This document shows positions 39,930 through 63,556 of a DNA stretch of 64,000 bases, piece after piece. A program made the translations under genes and the position numbers. The DNA lies in assembly GCA_043802745.1 (NCBI GenBank), contig JAZDKU010000015.1:1358-65357 (forward strand), read 5' to 3'. Below the pieces are notes generated by a model that saw only the letters and a list, made by a program, of their open reading frames with translations, searched no databases and was not told where the DNA came from. Each line of letters opens with the position of its first letter. Within the stretch, counting starts at the first letter, position 1. The DNA comes from a bacterium (GTDB taxonomy: Bacteria; Patescibacteriota; Minisyncoccia; Minisyncoccales; CG1-02-41-26).

Positions 39930-41579
39930 TTATTTTACTATTCCGCTATCGCCATCAACTGAATCGTCGTGGGGCAAGGAAGTATCTTCTGCTTCTGATC
40001 TTTCTGCTATAGCATTGCCAGCAAAACTATCTTCAGCTGTTAACTGGGCTTCGCCAATTAGCAAAGCCACCGAGCCAACCTGTGAGCTATCGGGAACTAA
40101 TTCGATTTGAAAAGCCAAAGTATAGGGAGAATCAAACCCTTGAAAAGCTCTTATGTCGCCTATTGACCAAACTACCTCTCGAGAAGCTGAGTCAAAAGTA
40201 AAAGAAGCTCCTTGTGGATTTGTTTGGCCGGTCAGCCTAACATTAGCTGGCAAAACTGCTTTTACTTTTGCGTTAGTCAAACCATTCCAATAATTTTTAA
40301 TTTGCCAGAAAACAGTGTAGTCCGTGCTTGTGCCAACTTGCGGAGGAATTGGCCCTTTGGCGGTAAAAGCATCGTCTTGATACATAACTTTTTGACTAAA
40401 GTCTATTTTGCCTTGCAGTTTTGTTTCAAAAGCTTTTTCCACTCCGCTTAAAGAAACAGTGTTTCTCAAAATAGGGCTTTCAACCCTTCGGCTAAAAGAA
40501 GTGTCTTTTGTTTTTACCCAAAACTCTACTTTGCCCTCCTCGCTAGCATCTAAAAATCTTAAGCTTTGCACATCTTGCCAATCAAAGATAATCGAGTTGT
40601 CTCCTTGGCCAATGCTTCCGTTTTCTGTTTTTAAGCTATTAAGATCAAAAAAATCGCTGTTTAATTTTACTAAAAGAAATTTTTTCTCCAAAGCAGTTGC
40701 CCCAATATTTTTAAAATAAACTTCATAATGAAGCAAACTTCCAACCCTCATAGATCCGGCTTGGGAGCCATTAACCATTTGAGATATGAAAACAGACGGC
40801 TCGGAAATTTCTATAGACCCTGTCACTTCTTTTAAGGCCATGAAGCCCTTGTCTTTTATAATGCCAATTTGGGCTTTAAAAATTTTTCGCTCGCCTTGCG
40901 TTCCGTTCAACAATCCTTGAATGTTAACCCTGCCACCATTAGCTTGCGTTAGGGTGGGCAAAGACCACTCGGCCACATCCATGCCTTTTGGCTTAGCACT
41001 TTGAAAGGTAAAGCCCGAAGGATAAAACATCTTTAGCCTTAAATTTTCTAAAGGAAAGTTAATATTGGAAAAATAGTTAACTGTAAAACCCAAATCTCCC
41101 CCTTGCTCGGCCTTAACTGGCAAATCAAATTCTAAGGTTAAGGGCACAAAACTTATCTTAGTTGTTAGGTTGGTGTTTGACTCGTATCTTGATTTTAAAT
41201 TTTTAGGGTTATAAAAAAGAGATGCTTTAGCCTGAAGTGTATCATTTTCTTTGCCAATAACTATGGCTTTAAACACTGCTGTTCGCTCTTCTCCGGGATA
41301 AATATCTTCTAGTTTTTTAGTAATTCTTTGTTCAGTATCTTCAATGGGGGAAGCATTGCCCGGATATTCAAAAATAAGCTCAGCTGACTCAAGCCTTACT
41401 TTGCCATTATTTTTAAATTTAACTGTGTAATCAATTTCATCGCCAGCTTGAACTTGTTCTGGACCCAAAATTTCAAGCTTTAAAGCTTCTTTGGAATAGA
41501 TGTTTCCTCGCCAATACCAAAAAGCAATGGCTGCCAAAAAAGCCATGGCTAAAAGAAAAAAGGTTAAGAATTTCCTCAT
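39930..41579 (-). CDS. hypothetical membrane-anchored extracellular protein (repeated beta-sandwich-like segments)
   Basis: N-terminal TM MRKFLTFFLLAMAFLAAIAFWYW, 549 aa. Confidence 0.45.
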   Translation of the reverse strand: MRKFLTFFLLAMAFLAAIAFWYWRGNIYSKEALKLEILGPEQVQAGDEIDYTVKFKNNGKVRLESAELIFEYPGNASPIEDTEQRITKKLEDIYPGEERTAVFKAIVIGKENDTLQAKASLFYNPKNLKSRYESNTNLTTKISFVPLTLEFDLPVKAEQGGDLGFTVNYFSNINFPLENLRLKMFYPSGFTFQSAKPKGMDVAEWSLPTLTQANGGRVNIQGLLNGTQGERKIFKAQIGIIKDKGFMALKEVTGSIEISEPSVFISQMVNGSQAGSMRVGSLLHYEVYFKNIGATALEKKFLLVKLNSDFFDLNSLKTENGSIGQGDNSIIFDWQDVQSLRFLDASEEGKVEFWVKTKDTSFSRRVESPILRNTVSLSGVEKAFETKLQGKIDFSQKVMYQDDAFTAKGPIPPQVGTSTDYTVFWQIKNYWNGLTNAKVKAVLPANVRLTGQTNPQGASFTFDSASREVVWSIGDIRAFQGFDSPYTLAFQIELVPDSSQVGSVALLIGEAQLTAEDSFAGNAIAERSEAEDTSLPHDDSVDGDSGIVK

Positions 41580-49355: not shown

Positions 49356-49802
49356 ATGGAACAAACATTGGCAGAAAATAGAAAAGCGTTTTTTGACTAT
49401 GAAATAATAGAAAAGTATCAAGCAGGCATTATTTTAAACGGTCAAGAAGTGAAGTCGATTAAAAACGGACGAATTAGCTTGGCAGGAAGTTTTGTTGTTT
49501 TAAAAGATAACGAGGTTTTTTTATTAAACGCTGATGTGCCACCTTACCAGCCAAACAATATCTATGGAGAATACGAAGCAAAACGCTCTCGCAAACTGCT
49601 TTTGCAAAAATCAGAAATAAATGAACTTGTTGGCAAAACCAAGCAAAAAGGGTTGACTATGGTGCCCCTAAAAGTGTATAATCACAAGGGTAAAGTAAAG
49701 ATAGAGTTTGCCCTATGTAAGGGCAAGCGCAAAGCCGACAAGCGAGAAAAAATAAAGACCAGGGAAGCTGATAGAGAAATACAAAGAGTGTTAAAATATT
49801 AA
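49356..49802 (+). CDS. smpB: SsrA-binding protein SmpB
   Basis: NRKAFFDYEIIEKYQAGIILNGQEVKSIKNG aligns with SmpB core (NKRARHEYFIEE..GWEVKSLRAGK). Confidence 0.9.
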   Translation: MEQTLAENRKAFFDYEIIEKYQAGIILNGQEVKSIKNGRISLAGSFVVLKDNEVFLLNADVPPYQPNNIYGEYEAKRSRKLLLQKSEINELVGKTKQKGLTMVPLKVYNHKGKVKIEFALCKGKRKADKREKIKTREADREIQRVLKY

Positions 49803-49806
49803 GAGT

Positions 49807-50058
49807 ATGTTTTACACTTATGTAATAAAAAGTAAAAAAGATAGTAAATTATATGTTGGGCATACAAACGACTTAGTAGCGAGAATAAAAGAACATAATA
49901 ATGGATTTGTTAAGTCAACGAAATCGAGAAAACCTTTCAAGCTACTTTACTATGAAGCTTGTAATATTTTAGAGGACGCAATAAAAAGAGAAAAATCATT
50001 AAAAACTGGATTTGGAAGAAGATATCTTAAACAAAGATTAAGTGATATAAATGTTTAA
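49807..50058 (+). CDS. GIY-YIG nuclease family protein
   Basis: YTYVIKS..LYVGHTNDLVARIKEHN (GIY-YIG). Confidence 0.8.
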   Translation: MFYTYVIKSKKDSKLYVGHTNDLVARIKEHNNGFVKSTKSRKPFKLLYYEACNILEDAIKREKSLKTGFGRRYLKQRLSDINV

Positions 50059-50103
50059 GCTTCGCCCATAGCATTTCGCTTGAAAAAAGCTACCTCGTCG
50101 TAA

Positions 50104-50161
50104 GCGGGCCCGCCCGCATCGCTACGCGAGCAAGCTCGCTTGCGAAGCGTTGCGGGCGGGG
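50104..50161. repeat. GC-rich hairpin (cccgcccgca ... tgcgggcggg) abutting tmRNA 5' end
   Basis: 10-bp stem enclosing GC-rich loop; terminator of GIY-YIG gene or member of GC-palindrome family. Confidence 0.5.
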
Positions 50162-50523
50162 ATGACAGCTTTGACAATTATGGCTTATTTAATAAGCAAG
50201 CCGAGCTCCAAAATCTCGCAAAACTTTTGGAAAACCATAAGTGCTACATACACCTATGAACCAGCTTACGCATTAGCATAAGCCTGTCTAGCCTTTAAGG
50301 CTGGGCCATCTCGCCTGTTGATTCCTAATAAACAGGACGGGGTGACAAATTATTAGGATTGGCAAATAGCCCTCCCAAACTATTTGCTGAAAAATTTGGG
50401 ATCGAAGCTTAAAATTTTTGTTATTTTTATATTTTGGGCTTTTAAACTTTTAAAATAACTAAGCTTGTAGTATTGTTAAGTAAATCGTTTTTGGACGAGA
50501 GTTCAATCTCTCCATCTCCACCC
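50158..50523 (+). ncRNA. ssrA: tmRNA (ssrA), predicted tag (A)ATYTYEPAYALA*
   Basis: 5' GGGGATG pairs with 3' CATCTCC; 3' end GGACGAGAGTTCAATCTCTC-CATCTCC-A matches tmRNA T-arm/acceptor; 5' ACAGCTTTGAC resembles conserved D-analog UUCGAC; in-frame GCT(50243)...GCA TTA GCA TAA(50279-81) ~86 nt from 5' end; smpB immediately upstream. Confidence 0.6.
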
Positions 50524-51822: not shown

Positions 51823-52758
51823 TTATTGAAATGGCATCGTAAATTTAAAAGAATCGACCATACTTTGAAAAACTTTTTTCGCTTGCGTGCCGTTATAGGT
51901 TATACAAAACAATAAATATTTATTGCCATCAAAAAAGCAATAACCTCCGTCTGGCCCGCCTAAATCAGCCCAGCCCCCTATTTTCACCGCATCAAAGCCA
52001 GCCACAGCGTAGTCACGGGTTATCTGTATGCCGCCGAGATATTTTACAGCGTCTGATAGTGAAGAAGTGGCGTTTAATGTCCTTATATAATATCCAGAAA
52101 CGACAATAGTATTTTCCAAGCTATCGCTTGGAGTAAAAATGGTTTTATAAGATGATATTTGAGCGCTTGGATCATCGACTCTGTTAATATCATACAGCCT
52201 CCAAGTAGTGGGAAAATTAATGCTAAAATTATAGTTTTTGTTATCATACGCTAACCAGCCCTCAGAGTACTTGCTGGTGGTGTATGTTGTACAATCTTTC
52301 GGGCAATTGCACTGATTTTCGCCCTTGCCACAGACCCCATTACCACAAGCCGCACAAGTATTTTTCACTGGATCCATCGCCAAACTACTCAAGAAGTCTG
52401 GTAGACAACTATAACTAATTGAACCATCTGCATTTTTCCATATATCATAACCAGATACGATTAAATTTAACCCTGAACAGCAAATAGAACCGTCTTTCCA
52501 TCTCTCTCCCTCTTTTACGCAATTGCCTTGGCTTACGGCGTTATCGGATTGATCATTTTTTTGAAGCATTTGTTTCTGCAACGAAGTTATTTGCTGTTGC
52601 AAAGAATCGGCTATTTGATTGGCAGTATTCCTTTGCCACAATAAAACACCAACTAATGCGATTACTAAAACTAACAAGATAACTGGCCAAAGGGGCTTGA
52701 TGCTTTTTTGGCTTAGCTGTTGAGCCGAACTTGGCTGACTAAAATTTTGTTGGTCCAT
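51823..52758 (-). CDS. hypothetical Cys-rich membrane-anchored extracellular protein
   Basis: Start moved to MDQQNF (upstream ORF extension overlaps neighbour); N-terminal TM PLWPVILLVLVIALVGVLLW; CxxCGNGxC motifs resembling giant protein 55219-59481. Confidence 0.5.
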   Translation of the reverse strand: MDQQNFSQPSSAQQLSQKSIKPLWPVILLVLVIALVGVLLWQRNTANQIADSLQQQITSLQKQMLQKNDQSDNAVSQGNCVKEGERWKDGSICCSGLNLIVSGYDIWKNADGSISYSCLPDFLSSLAMDPVKNTCAACGNGVCGKGENQCNCPKDCTTYTTSKYSEGWLAYDNKNYNFSINFPTTWRLYDINRVDDPSAQISSYKTIFTPSDSLENTIVVSGYYIRTLNATSSLSDAVKYLGGIQITRDYAVAGFDAVKIGGWADLGGPDGGYCFFDGNKYLLFCITYNGTQAKKVFQSMVDSFKFTMPFQ

Positions 52759-52774
52759 ATGATTTGATTGCTTG

Positions 52775-53563
52775 TTAAAACGCCCTAAAAGAAAGAAGAA
52801 TTTTTTGCAATAATTTATCAGCATCAATATCAGAAATCGCATTTGGGCCTGTTGGGTCAGTCCGTAAGTAGCCTAAATAAAAATTATTATTATTCATTGT
52901 TGGCATACTAAAGCATGCGTAACGGATTCCGTCCGAACATCGGTCTAACAATGGCTTCGGATGAGATCTTTTATACTCAGAGGCACATTGATCATCTTGC
53001 CTAATAGCAGAAGTAATTTTTGAGCCATCGCCATTAATTTTATAATCTATATTACAGTATTCCATGCCAAATCCTAAGGGATTAGCATACAAAACAAATT
53101 TTATTTGGCTTGTTGGAAAAGAGTTATTAAAAAATTCTATATTTTGAAACGCAATAGTATCTTGCGTGGTTGTTGGCAGGGTATTCTTTATACCCCACTG
53201 CTCGGGGTAACTTATTTCAAAACCGTAAGCTTCATTTCTGTAAGTCTGGGTAAGGGGATACTTTTCCTCCTTGTCTTGCACGGTAATCTTGATTTCTTTG
53301 CTTTTAATGAGAGTACTTACCTGATTCGCAACGTAAGCAATTTTTCCTTGGAGTTTGCTAATTATTGAACCAGATGACTTATTTTGCCAAAAGTAAACTC
53401 CTCCCCCAACAATTATAGCTGTAAAAATCATTAGCATCACCACCCAAAATGGTCGCACACCTGTTCTGTTTGGTTCGGAATTTATAATAACATTCGGCTG
53501 TTCTTCTTCTAGATGCTCCGCATCTAATTGATCAGTAAATTGATTTTCAAACCTTTGTCCCAT
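52775..53563 (-). CDS. hypothetical single-pass membrane-anchored extracellular protein
   Basis: TM FWVVMLMIFTAIIVGGGVYFW after acidic cytoplasmic N-tail. Confidence 0.5.
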   Translation of the reverse strand: MGQRFENQFTDQLDAEHLEEEQPNVIINSEPNRTGVRPFWVVMLMIFTAIIVGGGVYFWQNKSSGSIISKLQGKIAYVANQVSTLIKSKEIKITVQDKEEKYPLTQTYRNEAYGFEISYPEQWGIKNTLPTTTQDTIAFQNIEFFNNSFPTSQIKFVLYANPLGFGMEYCNIDYKINGDGSKITSAIRQDDQCASEYKRSHPKPLLDRCSDGIRYACFSMPTMNNNNFYLGYLRTDPTGPNAISDIDADKLLQKILLSFRAF

Positions 53564-54721: not shown

Positions 54722-55222
54722 TTACCATAAAAATGATTTTAAAATAGAAATAAATGCCTTAGCAAATAAGAAAATGGCTAAGCCAATGGAGGCCCAAATA
54801 ATTATTTGCTTGCCTTTGGTTGACCTTTTTGAGTCCCCGGCCGCCGTGAGCATATAAAACGCGCCAAGTAAAATCATCAAAGGCGCCACCACCAAGGCTA
54901 TAACCAATGCCCAATTTGAAACTTTATTAACAAGGTCTTTAATTTCTTTATTAGAAGAAAAAGAACAATAAGTAATTTTATTAGGATCTTTGCATTGACC
55001 ATAGTCACCCGAAAAGATCGGCTTGTCATCCGTGCCACCTTGTTTGCATGGATTATCACCATCGCTTTTGGACCCCACACAATCAGCACCACTTATGCAG
55101 TTAGTTTTTACACAACAAGGATAGCAAATCCCCTGATTTCCAGCTTTGGCAAAATTAGACCAAAAGCTAAAAACTAAAACTGCTAATAAAATTACTGAAT
55201 AAAATTTTAGTACTTTTTTCAT
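54722..55222 (-). CDS. small secreted Cys-rich protein with conserved C-terminal two-helix membrane module (paralogous to C-terminus of 55219-59481)
   Basis: Signal peptide; 12 Cys in ~90 aa; C-terminal LVIALVVAPLMILLGAFYMLTAAGDSKRSTKGKQIIIWASIGLAIFLFAKAFISIL. Confidence 0.6.
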   Translation of the reverse strand: MKKVLKFYSVILLAVLVFSFWSNFAKAGNQGICYPCCVKTNCISGADCVGSKSDGDNPCKQGGTDDKPIFSGDYGQCKDPNKITYCSFSSNKEIKDLVNKVSNWALVIALVVAPLMILLGAFYMLTAAGDSKRSTKGKQIIIWASIGLAIFLFAKAFISILKSFLW

Positions 55223-58200
55223 TTTAGGACCGAGGTGATGATAGAGATAAACGCTTTAGCAGTTAAAATAACAGCCAAGCCAATTATTGCCCAAGTAAGA
55301 ATTGTCTTGCCTTTAGTTGAGCGAGCTGGCTCCCCGGCGGCTGTTAACATATAAAACCCACCAAGCAAAATCATTAACGGCGCAATAACCAAAGCCAGAT
55401 AAAACAACCACTTTGCTAAAGAATTAATCAAGCACTCAAAGCTAGTGTGAGTTGTTATTGGGCAAAAAGCAATCTGCCCAATTGGCATACACTGCCCAGA
55501 AGCAGGCTCTGTTTTGTTTGAACACTCTAACGAGGCATTACATTGATCCTTAGGCGTTGCAGTATCCTTGCATGGACCACAAAACTCCATCTCCTTCGGC
55601 GCTGAATCACACTCATCTTTTTTTGCCGGAAGAACATCGCCATCAGCGGCTATGGCCACATTTGAGAAGTGGGTGGTTTGGGCAGTGAGGGTTTGGGTTG
55701 TTGGGTTCACAACAGTGTCTTTTAAAATTTCGTAGTTATTAGTAATGGCGCTGAAAAGAACAATGCGCAAGGCCTTTTCCTGCTCATCATTTAAACCCAA
55801 ACCGCTTTTGCTATATTTTGTAACAACTGTAATTTGCTTGGAAAAGTTATGAATTTCCTCGCCCTTGAGCGTCTTAATAGAAACATGAAACATAAAAGGG
55901 CCTAGCAAATTTGTATTGCTTGATGATTGCACCGAGAAAAACGGCGCTTTGTTAGCAAAATCAGGATCATTTTTTGGCATTGACTCTATGGCCACAGCCA
56001 CGTCTTCGGTAAAAGTGTTTGGGCTTATGATTAATTTTATACTCAAATTTGTTTTACTCATTTCCACTGTACCCCCTTCAGCTGGCTTTATAATCTTCCC
56101 GCTAGGAACCGGGGTGATCGGTGTAATTGGGATAACTGGAGTTGAACAATCTCCGGGCACAAATGTTTTCTTATTGCATTGAGCCATACATGCATTGGCA
56201 TAAACTACGCCATCACTCCCGCATACTTTGTCACTGCCCGAACAAGCAAACTCGCATTGAGCTTTATTAAAACAATTATTGCCAAAAACACCAAGAAATC
56301 CTTTGGTAAAAATACAATCCGGACCAAAAGCAAGGCATTCTTTTTCATCACAAACATTCAAAATTCCGTTTCCGCAATCCAAGCAAGTAGCTGTTGCACA
56401 TTTGCATTGGCCATCACTCCCGCACACTTGCTTCTGGCCACTCGCACACATGGGTGTACAATCTGCATCACTAGAACATTTATAAGGTAACACCGACCCC
56501 CCTTGGCACTCACATTGCTGTTTATAACATGTTGGATTCTTGCCCCCAGAGCAAGGAAAACTTGCACATTCTTTGTTTTGTTTGCAAGTAACAACATCTT
56601 TGGAGCTACTTAACAAATGAAAATTAGCGGATACATCATAAACATTGCTTCGAGAAGCCAACTTTATTTCAGCATCTTTATAGCCAGACGCCCCCCTAAC
56701 AACCGCTGTATAGCTATGCTCTGGAGAAAAGGTTAGAGCCGGTATAGTACATTTTCCTCGCGGGTCGCTGGTTACACAGCTTGCCACTTGACTGCCTTTG
56801 TCAAGAATAGAAACCGAAATTCCTGGCAAGTCCTCGCTAGTATAATTATCATCAACATGAACAAGAATTCTTTTTTGTAATGTATTATTTAAGCAAAAAC
56901 ATTCTTTTGGTTTTATGGTTGTGCCATAGATATCTTTTACTTCGCAAATTGGTGTTTGGTCTGCTTGGCAAGTTATTGTTTTAGTGCATTCTGAATCTTG
57001 AGAGCAAGTTAAATTTTTACAAAAACATTTTTTATCAGCGCCACAAGCTGGCTCTGTTATTTTTGTTTCATTGTTTGGACAGGTTGTGAGATAACCACAG
57101 TCATCTTTTGTGTTGCAGGGTTTGGCGCAAAAAACGCAATAATTACCGCCTTGCTTATCGCAAAAAGAATCACTTAAAAATTGATGCGAAACTTTATCAG
57201 CTTGGCCACAAACCGTGTCAAGACCGTCTTCTTTGGCGCAAAAACCGCCAAAAGTAGAGGACATATTAGGACAATTAATTAAACAAGCGCCATCATAACA
57301 ACCAGCTGGGCAAGCAGTTACCTTTGGCCAGCCATTACAATCATATTGCGCCACAGATGGTCCTTCTAATGAGGGAATATAAGAGAAAGAGGCATTAGTT
57401 ATACAATGGTCAATTATTGAGTTAAACCCGCCAGTAGCTAGCGCCGTTATATACCTTACCGCCCCCTTGGTATATTCATCTCCTCCATCAGTTCGCGAGC
57501 AATAAGGCGAGGGGCTCCCCTGCACTTTTGTCATTTTAGCCACTAATTTAACTGTGACATCACTATTATTTATTTCAAAGTCAGTAAAACATCCTCCAGG
57601 CTCATCCCAGCAAAACTGATAATCAATTATATAGGCTCGGTATTCTCCGTTTGGCAGTGAAAAAACGCATTTTTGAGGCGGGTTAATGGCAAAGCATTCT
57701 TGTTGAGGCAAGGCCTGGCTTTCGCCTTTTTTAACAATACCCACACGAACTCCCCAAGAATCATTCAAATCAATAGTTGCCTTAAATGCTGTTTGCGTGT
57801 TTTTATAAAGCGCTATTTGCACAGGAGCCATATTTAAAACAGCATCAAAATTTACTGTATTGTTTGTAAAAAATCCTTGAGCAGAAACTTGGGTAGAGTA
57901 ATTTTGCGTAGGAAAAGCTTCTGTATTATAGCCAAGGGGTATTAATTCATTAGTAAGGCAAGAGCCGTTTTGGTCAGTCACGCAAGAACCAACTTGCTTT
58001 TGCTGGCTGTCAAAAACTTTTATATTTGCTTGAGAAACTGCTTGGCCATTATCAGTTGTAATTTTAAAAGAAATTTTTTGCTCGGTGACAGCTGGAACAC
58101 AAGAGCAAGTGCGTTTTTGCTTATCGCACTTAGCAAGATAATCACTGCTTGCGCAACCATTAGTAGTGGCGCACTCTTGGTCATTGGCACAACCACCAGG

Positions 58201-59481
58201 AGAACATTTCCCGCCAACTATGTAAGAGCTAAAAAGACAGTGTGGGTCTATAGCAAAGCACTCATTTTTATCGCAAAGATTAAAAATTCCATTGCCACAG
58301 TCCGGACATTTTTTTATTTGCGCTAGAGCAGGCACCACATTAAAATATCCGTCGCTTATATCTTTGCCGGCCTGGCCACCAAACTGCGTTGTCTCGGTGA
58401 TGATAATTCTTAAATTGTCCGTTGGTTTCCAAATGCCGTTTGATGTAAAAAAATCGCTTTGTATTTCCCATGGGTAGGACATACTTGTGCCTCCTTGGTC
58501 TAGGGCGCCTTTTACTGGCTTATTGCTGTTTGTGGCTATAATTTTATAGGCCTGGGGAGATGTTTGGTCAACATAATCATAATTCCAAATGGCAATACTA
58601 ATTAAACTGTCAGGATTTTGAGTTTTCCATTTGATTTGATACAACTGACCTGCTTGCCAGCTTTCCCCGCCATTAGGAGATGAAACTGTAAGTCCAGCAG
58701 AAGGAACAAATTCCCCTCCCGAGCCTCCTCCTAGATTACCGCTAGGCAATGGCAGGCCACAAGCACTTTGTTTATAAATTAATGTATCAAAAGGCGGACA
58801 ATTGCCCGAACAACATTGGCTATGAGAGCTACAAAAAGTACCAAGCCCTAAGCATGGTTTACAAAAATAATTAACACAAACATTGGGCGAGCAACAATCA
58901 GAGCTAAGCACACAAGAATCATTGGCAACCTTGCAACCTGAAATTATGGGGTCTGGCTTGCAGATATTATCCTTTGGGTCGCAAATATATGGCGAGCAAC
59001 AATTATTTTTTATATCACCAGGGACACAGCCCTGACCAATATTAAAACATACCTTTGAATCTGGACATTGAGGTGGCACAGATGGCCCGCTATCAACACA
59101 CTTATTGCCACAACAATTTTTTGACGCGCATTGCGCGCTCTCTGTGCAATAATCCCCCAAAACAAACTCGCCTGGCTTGTTTTTAACGCAACGGTATTCG
59201 TTTGGAGTGCCGATGAAAAGGTATTCATAACCACAGCATGTATTAAACCCGTGTAAATAAGATTCCCCTGGAATAGTGTCACAACATTTTTTAATAGTAT
59301 TATCTCCGAAGACTAAACATCTATCTGATGTGTTGCAACAACTATTAGAGTCTAAACAAGCTTCTCCTTTTGCTACACAATTAGATTGAGCTTTAACAGT
59401 AAATCCGTGGGCTAAATAAAAAGCTGAACCTAAAAAAATTAGTCCAGCGATAATTAAAAACCATTTTTGTTTTTGCGCCAT
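55219..59481 (-). CDS. giant (1420 aa) secreted Cys-rich multidomain surface protein with Kazal-like domain and C-terminal two-helix membrane module
   Basis: Start taken at MAQKQKW (signal peptide; upstream extension runs through terminator hairpin); >120 Cys; CGSDGVVYANACMAQC Kazal signature; SSPNGGESWQAGQLYQIKW beta-sandwich motif; CarbopepD_reg-like ISFKITTDNGQAVSQANIKVFD; C-terminal LVIAPLMILLGGFYMLTAAGEPARSTKGKTILTWAIIGLAVILTAKAFISII. Confidence 0.7.
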   Translation of the reverse strand: MAQKQKWFLIIAGLIFLGSAFYLAHGFTVKAQSNCVAKGEACLDSNSCCNTSDRCLVFGDNTIKKCCDTIPGESYLHGFNTCCGYEYLFIGTPNEYRCVKNKPGEFVLGDYCTESAQCASKNCCGNKCVDSGPSVPPQCPDSKVCFNIGQGCVPGDIKNNCCSPYICDPKDNICKPDPIISGCKVANDSCVLSSDCCSPNVCVNYFCKPCLGLGTFCSSHSQCCSGNCPPFDTLIYKQSACGLPLPSGNLGGGSGGEFVPSAGLTVSSPNGGESWQAGQLYQIKWKTQNPDSLISIAIWNYDYVDQTSPQAYKIIATNSNKPVKGALDQGGTSMSYPWEIQSDFFTSNGIWKPTDNLRIIITETTQFGGQAGKDISDGYFNVVPALAQIKKCPDCGNGIFNLCDKNECFAIDPHCLFSSYIVGGKCSPGGCANDQECATTNGCASSDYLAKCDKQKRTCSCVPAVTEQKISFKITTDNGQAVSQANIKVFDSQQKQVGSCVTDQNGSCLTNELIPLGYNTEAFPTQNYSTQVSAQGFFTNNTVNFDAVLNMAPVQIALYKNTQTAFKATIDLNDSWGVRVGIVKKGESQALPQQECFAINPPQKCVFSLPNGEYRAYIIDYQFCWDEPGGCFTDFEINNSDVTVKLVAKMTKVQGSPSPYCSRTDGGDEYTKGAVRYITALATGGFNSIIDHCITNASFSYIPSLEGPSVAQYDCNGWPKVTACPAGCYDGACLINCPNMSSTFGGFCAKEDGLDTVCGQADKVSHQFLSDSFCDKQGGNYCVFCAKPCNTKDDCGYLTTCPNNETKITEPACGADKKCFCKNLTCSQDSECTKTITCQADQTPICEVKDIYGTTIKPKECFCLNNTLQKRILVHVDDNYTSEDLPGISVSILDKGSQVASCVTSDPRGKCTIPALTFSPEHSYTAVVRGASGYKDAEIKLASRSNVYDVSANFHLLSSSKDVVTCKQNKECASFPCSGGKNPTCYKQQCECQGGSVLPYKCSSDADCTPMCASGQKQVCGSDGQCKCATATCLDCGNGILNVCDEKECLAFGPDCIFTKGFLGVFGNNCFNKAQCEFACSGSDKVCGSDGVVYANACMAQCNKKTFVPGDCSTPVIPITPITPVPSGKIIKPAEGGTVEMSKTNLSIKLIISPNTFTEDVAVAIESMPKNDPDFANKAPFFSVQSSSNTNLLGPFMFHVSIKTLKGEEIHNFSKQITVVTKYSKSGLGLNDEQEKALRIVLFSAITNNYEILKDTVVNPTTQTLTAQTTHFSNVAIAADGDVLPAKKDECDSAPKEMEFCGPCKDTATPKDQCNASLECSNKTEPASGQCMPIGQIAFCPITTHTSFECLINSLAKWLFYLALVIAPLMILLGGFYMLTAAGEPARSTKGKTILTWAIIGLAVILTAKAFISIITSVLK

Positions 59482-59505
59482 ATTTTTTAAAAAATTATTC
59501 CCACA

Positions 59506-59555
59506 GACCCCACTCCTCCGCTCCGCCAACTGGCGGACGGCGGAGGGGTGGGGTC
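59506..59555 (-). terminator. GC-rich hairpin terminator after methyltransferase gene (gaccccactcctccgc ... gcggaggggtggggtc)
   Basis: 16-bp stem abutting stop codon; shares CCCCACYCCTC core with topA/metG in-frame element. Confidence 0.6.
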
Positions 59556-60084
59556 AAGTGCTGTTTATAAACAAAAGCCCGTAGTGATAACCGCTAGTTT
59601 CAATTTTTTTCTCCAAAACAAAATCTTGTTCTTCGGCAATCTCTTGAACGCGACCCGCAGAAACACGGCTTTCTTGCATGGGTCCAAAAGGCGATTCCAT
59701 ATCCCACTCAATTACTAAAACTTTTCCGCTTTGTTTTAAAACTCTTTTTGCTTCTTTAAAAACCGCGCTTTTGTCATCAATTTGAAATAAAAGATTTGTC
59801 ATTAGCACAATATCACAAGAATTATTTTCTATTTGCTTTATGCCTCTTTCAATATCAGCTAAAACTTTTTTAATATTATTTATGCCTTGCAGGTTCGCCT
59901 TGCTCATCAATGCTGACAATGCGTTTTCTTGCACATCAACAGCATAGACAACACCGTCTTCTAATTTGCTGGCCAAAGGAATCACCCATCCGCCCGAGCC
60001 ACAACCAAAATCAGCTGCTATCATATCTTTTTCAAGCGCTAATTGATTTAAAATTTCATTTGGATCTAAAAACCCTGTTGGCAT
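59554..60084 (-). CDS. class I SAM-dependent methyltransferase
   Basis: DFGCGSGGWVIPLA motif I. Confidence 0.75.
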   Translation of the reverse strand: MPTGFLDPNEILNQLALEKDMIAADFGCGSGGWVIPLASKLEDGVVYAVDVQENALSALMSKANLQGINNIKKVLADIERGIKQIENNSCDIVLMTNLLFQIDDKSAVFKEAKRVLKQSGKVLVIEWDMESPFGPMQESRVSAGRVQEIAEEQDFVLEKKIETSGYHYGLLFINST

Positions 60085-60086
60085 AA

Positions 60087-62570
60087 TTATTCTTCTTCTT
60101 TTTCATCGTTTAGGCAGATGGCCGAGGCAACTTTGTCGCCTGATTTTAATTTCATTATTCTCACCCCAGAGGAAGCCCGACCAATAACGGAAATGGTTTT
60201 TATCTCGCTCTTAATTACTTGGCCCTTAGTTGAAATAACAATTAAGTCAGCATCTTCTTCAGATAAAACTTTTGAAAAAACAATGTTTCCATTTTTTTCT
60301 GTTATTTTAGCGGCCTTTATGCCCGAGCCACCTCTTTTTTGCAATCTATATTCTTCAAGTTTTGTTCTCTTGCCATAACCGTTTTCAGTAATTATTAAAA
60401 GATGGTTTTTCCCATCAATTTTTGGCTTTATATCGTCCATAACAATAATTTCGTCGTTCTTACCAAGCCTCATGCCATGCACCCCAGAGGAGCCCCTGCC
60501 CATTGGCCGAACATCCGCATTTTTAAATCTAATTGATTGACCCAATTTAGAAATCATTATTATCTCGTCATTTTTATCAATAATCTTAGCGGATTTTAAA
60601 GAATCGCCTGGCTGTAATTTAATAGCCAAAAGCCCATTCTTTCTTACATTTTTAAAAGCAGACAACTCTGTCTTTTTTATTATACCATTTTTTGTAGCCA
60701 TTACTAAAAACTTTCCCGTGTCCACCTCATCTTGCTTGCTATATGGAATAAGGCTTAAAATTTTCTCATTTTGCGATATTTCCAAAAAGTTTAAAAGCCC
60801 CCTGCCTTTTGTAGCCCGACCCATTTCTGGAATTTCCCAAACAAAACACTGGAAAACCTTCCCAGAATCGGAAAAAAATAAAAGCTTGTCTAGGGTATTG
60901 CCGGTGGTAAGGTGGTCAACAGTGTCTTCGTCAGACACGTCAATGCCAGTAACCCCTTGCCCGCCTCGTTTCTGAATTTTATAAACAGACGGCTTAAACC
61001 GTTTTATAAACCCCCCTTGGGTTAAAATAATAATCGCCTCCTCTTTGGGAATTAAATCCTCGTCGCCAATCTCGCCCAACTTGCCTGCCACAACTTTTGT
61101 TCTTCTTGCGTCTTGGTGCTTTTCTAGAACTTCTTTTAACTCTTTTTTAACAACTTCTTTTAATTTTTTTGGGTTTTCTAAAATAACTAAAAGCTCTTTT
61201 ATTTTTTCTTCAATAGCTTTTAGCTCTTGCTCAACTTTATCTCTTTCAAGCTTGGCTAAACTTTGCAAACGCATTTCCAAAATAGCGGTTGCTTGAATGG
61301 CTGACAATTTAAATTTTTTTTGTAAATTTATATGAGCTGCATCTTTACTTTCTGACTGCCTGATTGTTTTTATAACCTCATCAATGTTTTTTAAGGCAAT
61401 CATCAAACCCTCTAAAATATGGGCTCTTTCCTTGGCTTTAGCTAAGTCAAACTTTGTGCGCCTAATAACCACTTCTTGCTTGTGCTTTAGGTAAAAAGAC
61501 AAAACATCAGCCAATGATAAAACTCTTGGCTGAATCCCATCCACCAAAGCCAGCATATTTAAATGAAATGTTTTTTGCAGGTCAGTGTATTTATATAAAG
61601 CATTCAAAACTTTATTAGGAAAAGCTTCTTTTTTTAAATCAATAACAATGCGCATGCCTTCTCGGTCAGACTCGTCTCTGATGTCTTTAACTCCGTCTAT
61701 TCTTTTATCTTCAACCAACTTAGCAAACTGGATGACCAGAGAAGATTTTTGCACTTGATAAGGAATCTCGGTGATAACAATTTGTGAAGCGCCTTTTTTA
61801 TTCTCAATAATTTCCGCCTTGCCTCGCGTTAAAATTGGCCCCTTACCTTGAGAGTAAGCGGAAATAATTTCTTTTTTACTATAAATAATTCCACCAGTTG
61901 GAAAATCAGGGCCTTTAACAAATTGAAATAAATCTTCAGTTGTGGCCTCTGGATTATCAACTAAATGAATTGTGGCCTCCAAAACTTCTCCGGCATTGTG
62001 GGGCGGAATACTCGTGGCCATGCCAACCGCAATTCCAAAAGAACCGTTTAATAAAAGTTGAGGCACAGGAGATGGCAAAACAGCTGGCTCTTTTCTGGTG
62101 GCATCGTAGTTTGAAACAAAATTAACTGTTTCTTTTTCAATATCATTTAGCATTTCCTCTCCCGCCGAAGAAAGCTTACACTCTGTGTATCGCATGGCAG
62201 CCGCTCCATCACCATCAATACTGCCCCAATTCCCTTGGCCTTTAACTAATGTATAGCGCAAAGAAAAATCTTGGGCCATTCTTACTAAAGAATCATACAC
62301 TGCCACATCCCCATGCGGGTGGTATTTTCCCAAAACTTCTCCCACAACCGTGGCCGACTTTCTAAATTTTGCCGTGGACCGTAAACCCATATCGTACATA
62401 GCAAACAAAATCCTTCGGTGAACCGGTTTTAAGCCGTCCCGCACATCGGGCAAAGCCCGGGAAACAATAACCGACATTGCATAATCCAAATAGCAATTTT
62501 TTATTTCTTCGGTAATTTCTCGGTCTTTGATATATCCAATTTCTTGCAATGGTTGTTCTTTTTCTGGCAT
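60087..62570 (-). CDS. gyrA: DNA gyrase subunit A
   Basis: [33 protein letters not shown], active-site Tyr region, C-terminal beta-pinwheel repeats. Confidence 0.95.
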
Positions 62571-62594
62571 GAATTAAAAGTTTATAGTTTATAG

Positions 62595-62891
62595 TTAGTA
62601 GTTAATAGTAGACGAAGCAGTAGAAGTTGAAATTGTCTCGTCTAAAGTGGTTGTGCCAACTAGGCTTTCTATCATTTGGGTTATTTCTTGATTTGTTTGG
62701 TCAGTTATTTGCGTTGCCTCTTTGGCTTTATCAATAGCGCCCAAAGTATTTAGCCCCAAACCAACGTCAATGCCCTGACTAGCAAACTTATCCATTCTTG
62801 CTCTGGCATTATGACCAATAATAAAAGCCAACGGCACAGCAATTGCCATCAAAACCACCCCTGTTAAAATTATTTTCCAAATTTTTTCCAT
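62595..62891 (-). CDS. hypothetical small membrane-anchored protein
   Basis: 98 aa, N-terminal TM ILTGVVLMAIAVPLAFIIG. Confidence 0.4.
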   Translation of the reverse strand: MEKIWKIILTGVVLMAIAVPLAFIIGHNARARMDKFASQGIDVGLGLNTLGAIDKAKEATQITDQTNQEITQMIESLVGTTTLDETISTSTASSTINY

Positions 62892-62893
62892 AA

Positions 62894-63556
62894 TTACGGA
62901 GCAAGTAAAATAATCTTCATTTCGTCGTCTTCGCTTGGTAGGTCTTTTTGGGTTATTTTTGCTTTTGGCAAAGGCTCGATGGCTTCACTGCCCATTTCTT
63001 TTAAAAATTTAGAAACATCATCTAACTCAACTTTTAGGCCCGGTATTTTATAATGCATTGGAATAACAATGCCTGGCTCTATTTGAGCAATAATTTCAGT
63101 GGCGTCTTTAGCATTAATAGTGTAAGTGCCACCAACCGGAATTATTAAAATATCAACATTGCCCAAATCCTCAACCTGCTGACTTGTTAATTCTTTCTGC
63201 CCCAAGTCGCTTAAAAATCCAATCTTCATTCCTTCTGCCATAATAGTGAACATTATCACCGACCCCCTTTCTTTGCCATTAGCGTTGTCGTGAAAAGCGG
63301 GAATAGCTTTGATAAAAGCATCTTTTATTTCATATTCTCCAGGAGTGTCAACAACAAAAGGACTTCCTCCCACAGCCCTGTGGTTTGAGTGATCTTTGTG
63401 GCCGTGACTGATCAAAACAACATCCCCCTCGGTTTTAGGAAATTTTAAGCCAATAAAGTCTGCTTCAAAGGGGTCAATAATAACTTTGGTTTCCCCGTCT
63501 TTACGGTTTTTAACTATAATTTCAAAAAAAGATTGTCCGTGCCAAGTAATATTCAT
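62894..63556 (-). CDS. MBL-fold metallo-hydrolase
   Basis: VLISHGHKDHSNH (HxHxDH) motif. Confidence 0.8.
   Translation of the reverse strand: MNITWHGQSFFEIIVKNRKDGETKVIIDPFEADFIGLKFPKTEGDVVLISHGHKDHSNHRAVGGSPFVVDTPGEYEIKDAFIKAIPAFHDNANGKERGSVIMFTIMAEGMKIGFLSDLGQKELTSQQVEDLGNVDILIIPVGGTYTINAKDATEIIAQIEPGIVIPMHYKIPGLKVELDDVSKFLKEMGSEAIEPLPKAKITQKDLPSEDDEMKIILLAP

Follow-up and report, generated by a model that had tools for sequence, protein, structure and literature searches.

What accounts for two adjacent genes, very unequal in size, whose secreted products end in nearly the same hydrophobic hairpin? The question is raised by a 64,000-nt stretch of contig JAZDKU010000015.1 from a Patescibacteria genome (hereinafter designated the window), in which the minus strand carries a gene for a protein of 1,420 residues (55219..59481; hereinafter designated the giant) followed directly by a gene for a protein of 166 residues (54722..55222; hereinafter designated the small pilin). 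A first-pass annotation, which noticed the shared tail, read it as a dedicated sorting or anchoring signal, possibly for an unknown processing system. We favor a different answer, to which we give a probability of roughly 0.55: the two genes are a two-member array of VirB2-like pilins in a slot next to gyrA and a methyltransferase gene, and the giant is a self-cleaving adhesin-pilin precursor used by a type IV secretion system (T4SS) encoded elsewhere.

A complete pilin unit shared by both proteins

The small pilin open reading frame (ORF) encodes a signal peptide (aa 1-27), a Cys-rich knob (aa 28-90) and a pilin hairpin (aa 91-166). The giant ORF is longer than the giant itself (55219..59529; 1,436 codons, open to a TTG at 59529); the start is likely the ATG at 59481, which yields a protein beginning MAQKQKWF, because this start matches that of an 88%-identical homologue (P0001). 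From its N-terminus the giant consists of a signal peptide, an adhesin ectodomain, a GAIN/ZU5-like domain, a Cys-knob and a pilin hairpin. Its stop codon overlaps the start codon of the small pilin gene by 4 nt (ATGA), indicating that the two genes form one operon. Both N-termini are signal-peptide-like, with a hydrophobic stretch and then ..AKA/G in one protein and ..VKA/Q in the other, and both proteins end in two hydrophobic helices. The loop between the helices has a net charge of +3 in the small pilin and +2 in the giant, consistent with both ends of the hairpin lying outside. In the AlphaFold2 (AF2) model of the small pilin the helices span residues 94-126 and 131-165, with block-mean predicted local distance difference test (pLDDT) values of 80-92 over residues 101-166. 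Hydropathy, modeled helices and loop charge thus agree with the order first proposed, a signal peptide and then helix, basic loop and helix.

The two C-termini align without gaps over 91 residues with 50 identities (55%; BLASTP E 3e-30 with composition-based statistics). Over the last 65 codons the identity is 66% in protein and 68% in DNA, in line with the first estimates of ~65% and ~70%. Across the 91-codon module, third codon positions are 45% identical and 24 of the 49 codons that specify the same amino acid in both genes are the same; these low values indicate an old duplication and not a recent repeat, as the first-pass annotation had held. Its statement that the ectodomains are unrelated has to be narrowed, since the homology extends upstream of the hairpin through the Cys-rich knob. 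The giant C-terminus is 50% identical over 124 aa to an orthologue of the small pilin (P0022), knob included, and the C-terminus of the giant at a related locus (L010) is 48% identical over 161 aa to the whole mature small pilin. The shared unit is therefore the entire mature small pilin, knob plus hairpin, and the giant combines an ectodomain with a complete unit of the small-pilin type. In the small pilin the knob (54953..55141, minus strand) is fast-evolving and of low AF2 confidence, and can be aligned to the knob that the giants have near the membrane; the homologous knob of the giant covers aa 1291-1344 (55450..55611, minus strand).

The hairpin itself is a PF18895 module in both proteins, at 54725..54952 (minus strand) in the small pilin, where the basic loop between the helices reads DSKRSTKGKQI, and at aa 1345-1420 (55222..55449, minus strand) in the giant, where it is near-identical to the modules of the L001 and L010 giants. 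Against a cut-off of 26.6 bits, PF18895 scores 45.5 bits on the small pilin, 40.8 on the whole giant and 45.9 on the C-terminal 73 aa of the giant, covering profile positions 2-71 and 4-71 of 71 in the small pilin and the giant, respectively. A protein identical to the small pilin (P0020) carries the NCBI name 'MAG: pilin [bacterium]'. Each of the 144 close relatives scanned has a PF18895 match, to which 56 add one to PF04956, the TrbC/VirB2 family (best E 6.9e-26), so the family bridges to the classical VirB2/TrbC pilins and homology to these is supported transitively. The first suggestion of a VirB2/TrbC-like hairpin is thereby upheld, and by its profile matches the module is the known VirB2-like pilin domain of Patescibacteria, already annotated and ordinary when it stands alone. 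Type IV pilin identity was considered and rejected, as the class III leader G/F(T/S)LIE is absent from both N-termini by regular expression and by reading.

Searches of the window with a two-sequence hidden Markov model (HMM) and with a family HMM built from 255 instances find no further copies of the module, and a scan of genome contigs with the small pilin returned a single locus. Beyond the window, a profile of the module matches 22,097 cluster representatives at E ≤ 1e-3, of which the best 150 were analyzed for architecture. Among these, 96 carry a single module and 54 carry 2-8 in tandem. The single-module proteins have it within 10 aa of the C-terminus in 92 of 96 cases; 62 are shorter than 200 aa and 19 are 300 aa or longer. 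The part N-terminal to the module ranges continuously from ~20 aa, a signal peptide alone, to 1,467 aa, and the attached ectodomains include CARDB, TIG, fn3 and Ig-like domains. The prediction that other cargo proteins would carry the module is thus borne out by many proteins with differing ectodomains, but most of the best matches are bare, being stand-alone pilins of 105-200 aa. Because most of them comprise only the module and a signal peptide, the module is a functional core and not a cargo tag, that is, the ancestral functional unit to which ectodomains were added. Several relatives (P0045, P0046, P0048, P0058, P0074 and others) are 'poly-pilin' proteins with 2-8 tandem PF18895 modules of ~85-110 aa each.

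Both genes also bear the marks of selection. Compared with its counterpart at locus L014, the giant has a ratio of nonsynonymous to synonymous substitution rates (dN/dS) of 0.126 over 1,407 codons, at dS 0.52, and of 0.036 in the pilin module. For the small pilin gene the corresponding values are 0.38 overall and 0.21 in the module, rising to 0.56 over the first 67 aligned codons, which encode the signal peptide and knob. These ratios indicate that both genes are real and under constraint.

A GAIN/ZU5-like stalk and a mosaic ectodomain in the giant

Between ectodomain and pilin unit, residues ~1129-1280 of the giant (55642..56097, minus strand) are modeled by AF2 as a membrane-proximal beta-sandwich resembling the GAIN/ZU5 ('MAIN'-like) fold, with block-mean pLDDT of 77-92 except in one low-confidence loop (fragment residues ~51-70). 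In the Protein Data Bank (PDB), Foldseek matches the model to the ZU5 domains of ankyrin (3ud2, E 3.6e-6) and UNC5b (3g5b, E 8e-4) and to the GAIN domains of CD97 (9mqr, E 1.7e-4), BAI3 (4dlo, E 1e-3) and CELSR1 (8vy2, E 2.8e-3), with probabilities of 0.99-1.0. ZU5 and GAIN domains belong to one autopeptidase superfamily, ZU5/GPS/Nup98 (Zhang et al. 2012, PMC3482391), and the bacterial MAIN domains cleave at H-F/S in the turn before the last strand, after which the fragments stay associated (bioRxiv 10.64898/2026.05.12.724683).

The giant has such a motif, H1271-F1272-S1273 (55663..55671, minus strand), at the turn that separates the final two strands of the model (E144-151 and E154-160), where motif and position predict autoproteolysis between F and S. 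H and F are invariant in an alignment of eight distinct homologues and make up two of the mere six invariant columns that the stalk has; every homologue has S or T at the third position. A stalk HMM matches every available pilin fusion of 823 aa or more, including one sequence outside its training set, and finds no match among the fetched fusions of 262-782 aa; a word-indexed protein search with the stalk returned nothing. Each HMM match contains HF[ST] at 93-176 aa before the C-terminus, a distance equal to the size of an ordinary mature pilin. Fold and motif are what suggest the GAIN/ZU5 assignment, and on this model the giant probably self-cleaves just before its pilin unit. A cut between F1272 and S1273 would yield Q32-F1272, of 1,241 aa, and S1273-K1420, of 148 aa; the mature small pilin has 139 aa.

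The adhesin-type ectodomain (56098..59388, minus strand) is a mosaic that is poorly conserved between lineages. It comprises, in order, a Cys-knot array, a Kre9/KNH-like Ig domain, two CxDCGNG modules, two CarboxypepD_reg-like domains and a Kazal-type domain, and the 1,436-codon ORF encodes 111 Cys residues. The Kazal-type inhibitor-like domain (aa 1076-1112; 56146..56256, minus strand) scores 28.5 bits with Kazal_2 when scanned alone, against a cut-off of 22.8, and shows by regular expression the six-Cys pattern VCGSDGVVYANAC. Knots of the protease-inhibitor type are an unusual feature for a surface protein of bacteria; P0138, a related giant, matches Antistasin. The last ~300 residues are conserved even among giants whose other ectodomain parts barely align.

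Relatives of the ectodomain are found next to filament subunits elsewhere. At two loci (L022:45-2366 and L025:216-3432) a split version occurs, in which three Kazal_2 domains, a Kre9/KNH Ig domain and CxDCG modules form part of a separate Cys-rich protein (870 aa or more) that has its own stop codon and resembles the window ectodomain (BLASTP E 1e-18 and 4e-16). Four nucleotides past the stop lies a giant-type pilin of 199-204 aa, equipped with a signal peptide and an acidic N-terminal region, and a small-type pilin comes next. Simple fission at the HFS site was considered as the origin of this arrangement and ruled out, as the stalk HMM misses the separate ectodomain protein. At a third locus (L015:1-5250; GCA_038061395.1) an 80%-identical copy of ectodomain residues ~320-1125 ends in Ig_Rha78A_N and PKD domains and lacks the pilin module. 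It is followed by two genes with type IV pilin-like leaders of the GFTLIELL type (the first has an N_methyl match exceeding the Pfam threshold, the second one that falls short of it), so the same adhesin cassette is here paired with a different filament system. Taken together, the three loci hint that adhesin and filament subunit are functionally coupled.

The gyrA-methyltransferase-pilin slot

The two pilin genes lie in the window at the end of a conserved gene order (54722..63556, minus strand) that recurs in all retrieved contexts: Lactamase_B_3, a small transmembrane (TM) ORF at most loci, gyrA, a methyltransferase gene and one or more pilin genes. Here gyrA (60087..62570, minus strand; 827 aa), which anchors the slot, is followed by a class I S-adenosylmethionine (SAM) methyltransferase identified by Pfam (59554..60084, minus strand; 176 aa), immediately upstream of the pilin slot. 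The slot is present at loci L001, L005, L008, L010, L011, L012, L014, L016, L017 and L019-L098, with 1-8 PF18895 genes for proteins of 105-1,719 aa. Eighty of the related loci are metagenomic and were found with a module pattern; the screen of these covered five features only, namely gyrA, the methyltransferase, Lactamase_B_3, PGA_cap and the pilin module. Among the 55 with enough upstream sequence, 52 have a methyltransferase homologue directly upstream of the first pilin gene (median gap ~20 nt), and gyrA is present in all 29 that have at least 3.8 kb upstream. At L011 the methyltransferase stop codon overlaps the pilin start. The enzyme matches no specific NCBIfam family and appears generic. 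A role for it as a dedicated partner of the pilins was considered; its co-occurrence with them is inseparable from plain gyrA synteny, and this remains a lead only.

The typical content of the slot in the metagenomic loci is a pair of pilins of ~108 and ~140 aa, and the giant occupies the position of the first, ~108-aa member. The pilins measure 1,420 and 166 aa in the window, 1,407 and 143 aa at L014, 1,556 and 169 aa at L001, and 1,719 and 151 aa at L010; single pilins of 1,529 and 159 aa occupy the slot at L011 and L008, respectively. Other loci have 109 and 142 aa (L005), 150 and 823 aa (L016), or 726, 143 and 205 aa (L017), and L012 has eight pilin genes, one of which (L012:10001-11821) encodes seven tandem modules. 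In the gyrA genes of L006, L007 and L017 (1,276-1,296 aa) there is an intein with a LAGLIDADG endonuclease (Pfam Intein_splicing and LAGLIDADG_3); the ORF at the gyrA position of L010 is similarly long (1,223 aa), and the window gyrA lacks an intein.

Between the methyltransferase stop codon and the ATG of the giant lies a very stable, GC-rich hairpin (59508..59553, minus strand; free energy -46.9 kcal/mol, z -7.3), which is unique in the window and absent from 98 related loci and could be a terminator, an attenuator or an RNA-stabilizing element. Promoter-like sites in the operon are at chance level (17 observed, 12.9 expected), and terminator-like sites are about twice as frequent as expected, none of them placed so as to aid interpretation.

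The window at large contains housekeeping genes, at ~37% GC. Elsewhere in it, smpB (49356-49802), a GIY-YIG ORF (49807-50058) and the transfer-messenger RNA gene (50158-50523; Rfam 139.6 bits) stand in a row (49356..50523, plus strand), the GIY-YIG gene separating smpB from its RNA partner, much as an inserted small mobile endonuclease would. Two N-terminally anchored secreted proteins are encoded between PGA_cap and the L20/L35/IF3 genes (51823..53563, minus strand); one, a Cys-rich protein of 339 aa, has a CAACGNGVCG motif recalling the CxDCGNG modules of the giant, and relatives have an AbiEii/DUF6922 toxin-antitoxin pair at the same position (L001:12453-13330). A further probable surface protein of 549 aa, without the pilin module, has DUF11, DUF7619 and DUF7507 repeats (39930..41579, minus strand).

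Pilus subunit, membrane anchor or sorting signal

Placing the array in the context of Patescibacteria T4SSs gives the following proposal. After Sec export and cleavage of the leader, each hairpin would insert so that its two ends are outside and its basic loop is cytoplasmic. The GAIN-like domain of the giant would then cut itself between F1272 and S1273, leaving a 148-aa pilin-sized fragment that keeps the 1,241-aa adhesin non-covalently through the retained last beta-strand. Pilin units would be pulled from the membrane and polymerized by a VirB4-type T4SS encoded elsewhere, with the small pilin as the bulk subunit and the processed giant as a rare or tip subunit showing a detachable host-binding adhesin. 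The filament of F pili has both pilin termini on its outside and the loop in its lumen (PMC5018250); an appendage at the N-terminus would therefore face outward and be exposed. Going further, one might see in the giant a force-sensitive joint of the GAIN/MAIN type built into a conjugation-type pilin and the host-recognition adhesin missing from the published survey, and in the slot a fast-changing host-range locus whose methyltransferase possibly acts on pilins; as a joint claim this is speculative, and we think it rather unlikely that all of it holds.

The published record of the family is what connects the proposal to a T4SS. PF18895 has served to identify VirB2-like pilins in 1,948 VirB4-carrying assemblies of Patescibacteria; in 1,135 of these the pilin gene adjoins virB4, and 441 tandem 'VirB2 arrays' of 2-11 genes each were described in 2025 (Quinonero-Coronel et al., PMC12102498). 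The pilin array is essential in Ca. Southlakia epibionticum (Wang et al. 2023, PMC10633639; PMC12857230). Because 2,407 assemblies in the dataset of 3,035 genomes carry the clade VirB4 (PMC12102498), a T4SS is likely encoded elsewhere in the present genome. The window pilins share with the published arrays the PF18895 domain, the signal peptide plus C-terminal hairpin, the tandem paralogues of low identity and the host group. The published arrays are described as small proteins, many of them adjoining virB4, whereas the window array occupies a slot behind gyrA and the methyltransferase gene, where no T4SS gene is seen, and includes a 1,420-aa precursor with adhesin and GAIN-like domains. The survey reports no adhesins such as PrgB (PMC12102498), and a term search of its text finds no mention of pilin fusions or of gyrA.

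Several observations weigh against this proposal. No T4SS component is found among the 40 ORFs scanned in the window, and the precomputed Pfam annotation of the 10-kb flanks of inspected related contigs contains no T4SS gene; the link to a T4SS is thus drawn from family homology and published statistics and not from this genome. Reviews treat a pilus in single-membrane Patescibacteria as an open possibility, no pilus having yet been seen in any Patescibacterium (PMC12857230). The comparison with PF04956 that the first-pass annotation suggested, run as a Pfam scan, leaves the window proteins themselves below the cut-off (15.1 against 27.9 bits, E 0.027) even as the 56 of 144 close relatives match; the sub-threshold alignment does fall in the right region (residues 92-159 to profile positions 35-96). 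A profile search of PDB sequences with the module gives chance matches to membrane proteins and no solved pilin, and Foldseek with the small pilin model gives generic helical hairpins without significance (best pilin 8dfu, E 2.7). NCBIfam NF045849, the 'pilin-like conjugal transfer protein' of a Mycoplasma integrative and conjugative element, is likewise sub-threshold (25 against 40 bits) and was not used as support. As to the stalk, its AF2 model was built on a six-sequence alignment, it matches no Pfam family, a PDB profile search gives no match and hence no solved relative, and self-cleavage is something we infer. A motif scan finds no HxS/T at the corresponding position in 16 mid-size fusions (262-782 aa), indicating that cleavage is unnecessary for fusion.

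The absence of T4SS genes from the window and from the inspected flanks lends some weight to an alternative that we regard as possible though not favored, namely that the gyrA-linked PF18895 hairpin is a membrane anchor only. In this view it has lost the ability to polymerize, or never had it, and holds Cys-rich surface proteins in the cytoplasmic membrane of a single-membrane cell independently of any T4SS, while the GAIN-like domain sheds the adhesin in the manner proposed for MAIN proteins anchored to the wall. Such an anchor would fit a slot that appears to run in the direction of the housekeeping gene gyrA and to follow it closely. It would also spare the difficulty of accommodating a 1,241-aa appendage in a helical pilus, and the tandem proteins of 2-8 modules resemble polytopic membrane proteins more than filament subunits. 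Published MAIN proteins have the architecture of signal peptide, adhesion or enzyme domains, MAIN domain and surface anchor (bioRxiv 10.64898/2026.05.12.724683), and the hairpin could be one more such anchor. However, the bare modules of 105-200 aa that make up most of the best matches have nothing to anchor. The module is moreover over-conserved for a plain anchor, given its dN/dS of 0.036 and its near-identity between giants with barely alignable ectodomains, and its family overlaps TrbC/VirB2 and includes the essential and virB4-adjoining arrays of the literature. The separation from T4SS genes also loses force, since in Rickettsiales-type systems it is normal for virB2 paralogues to lie apart from the other vir genes. 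On balance we continue to prefer a pilin array with an adhesin-bearing precursor.

Comparison with known systems points to what would set such a precursor apart. Classical VirB2/TrbC/TraA pilins (F, T, RP4 and R388 pili) likewise have two long hydrophobic helices and a short basic loop after a cleaved leader; unlike them, the window pilins are below the PF04956 threshold, gave in searches no sequence match and no significant fold match to solved pilins, do not seem to have a C-terminal tail available for trimming or cyclization, and belong to a host group without an outer membrane (PMC12102498). Large N-terminal domains are absent from the classical pilins, and the giant has one. With the MAIN proteins of Brogan and Rudner the giant has in common the GAIN/ZU5 beta-sandwich, the H-F-S/T before the last strand, the order of parts and the large size. 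The anchors reported for these are a sortase signal, cell-wall-binding domains or SLH, whereas that of the giant is a VirB2-like pilin hairpin, and the giant's stalk, whose cleavage is predicted, matches no existing Pfam model, in contrast to the experimentally cleaved MAIN domains. A term search of the MAIN study (bioRxiv 10.64898/2026.05.12.724683) finds no mention of Patescibacteria or pilins. Another parallel would be the pilus adhesins in which the giant's plan, a polymerization module plus a large binding domain encoded beside the gene for the bulk subunit, also occurs. Two-domain adhesins of this kind include the lectin-plus-pilin proteins FimH and PapG and the type IV minor pilins TcpB and CofB with large extra domains; their folds and assembly machines are unrelated to those considered here, and their adhesin stays covalently attached, whereas a self-cleaving joint is predicted in the giant.

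The possibility raised by the first-pass annotation, a C-terminal sorting signal processed by a dedicated sortase- or exosortase-like enzyme, now seems very improbable. It drew on real features: the module sits at the extreme C-terminus of nearly all single-module matches, it is attached to ectodomains as unrelated as CARDB, TIG, fn3 and Ig-like domains, and one neighboring gene, that for the methyltransferase, is conserved. Sortase, exosortase and rhombosortase signals are similarly C-terminal on diverse secreted proteins, with a hydrophobic segment and then basic residues. However, the final 110 residues of both proteins are free of LPXTG, PEP and GlyGly motifs, and the unit is two helices in 75-90 aa. 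The 40 window ORFs contain no Pfam match to a sortase, exosortase or rhombosortase, and the conserved neighbor is a generic SAM methyltransferase in which no TM segment is noted, and not a peptidase or transpeptidase. Since there is neither a signature motif nor a cognate enzyme gene in the window, and since stand-alone modules without cargo dominate the best matches, the tag is unsupported; homology of the module family to VirB2 pilins also speaks against it. Finally, that the likeness reflects generic, composition-driven hydrophobic hairpins without common descent, as weak sub-threshold matches to the unrelated two-TM families Saf_2TM, DUF2165 and DUF6112 might suggest, can be dismissed in view of the composition-corrected BLASTP E of 3e-30, the conserved motif APLMILLGxFYxLTAAGDP...GK, the Pfam scores above threshold and the syntenic orthologues across divergent lineages.

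The module, the tandem arrays and the annotation of the small pilin gene are already known. Three things were not found described in the literature searched and appear new: a VirB2-like pilin made as the C-terminal end of a giant adhesin precursor of the GAIN/MAIN type, a MAIN protein anchored by a pilin hairpin, and the conserved gyrA-methyltransferase-pilin slot. The extension of the shared unit over the whole mature small pilin likewise appears new. If the proposal is true, the newly described bacterial MAIN domains gain an anchor of a kind new to them; should the fusion serve as a membrane anchor and nothing else, it would follow that some PF18895 "pilins" are not pilus subunits. Patescibacteria account for a large part of the bacteria not yet cultured, every member brought into culture grows while attached to another microbe, and the T4SS and pilin array are essential in the sole species tested. 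The giant is thus a testable candidate for how these bacteria recognize, hold and release their hosts.

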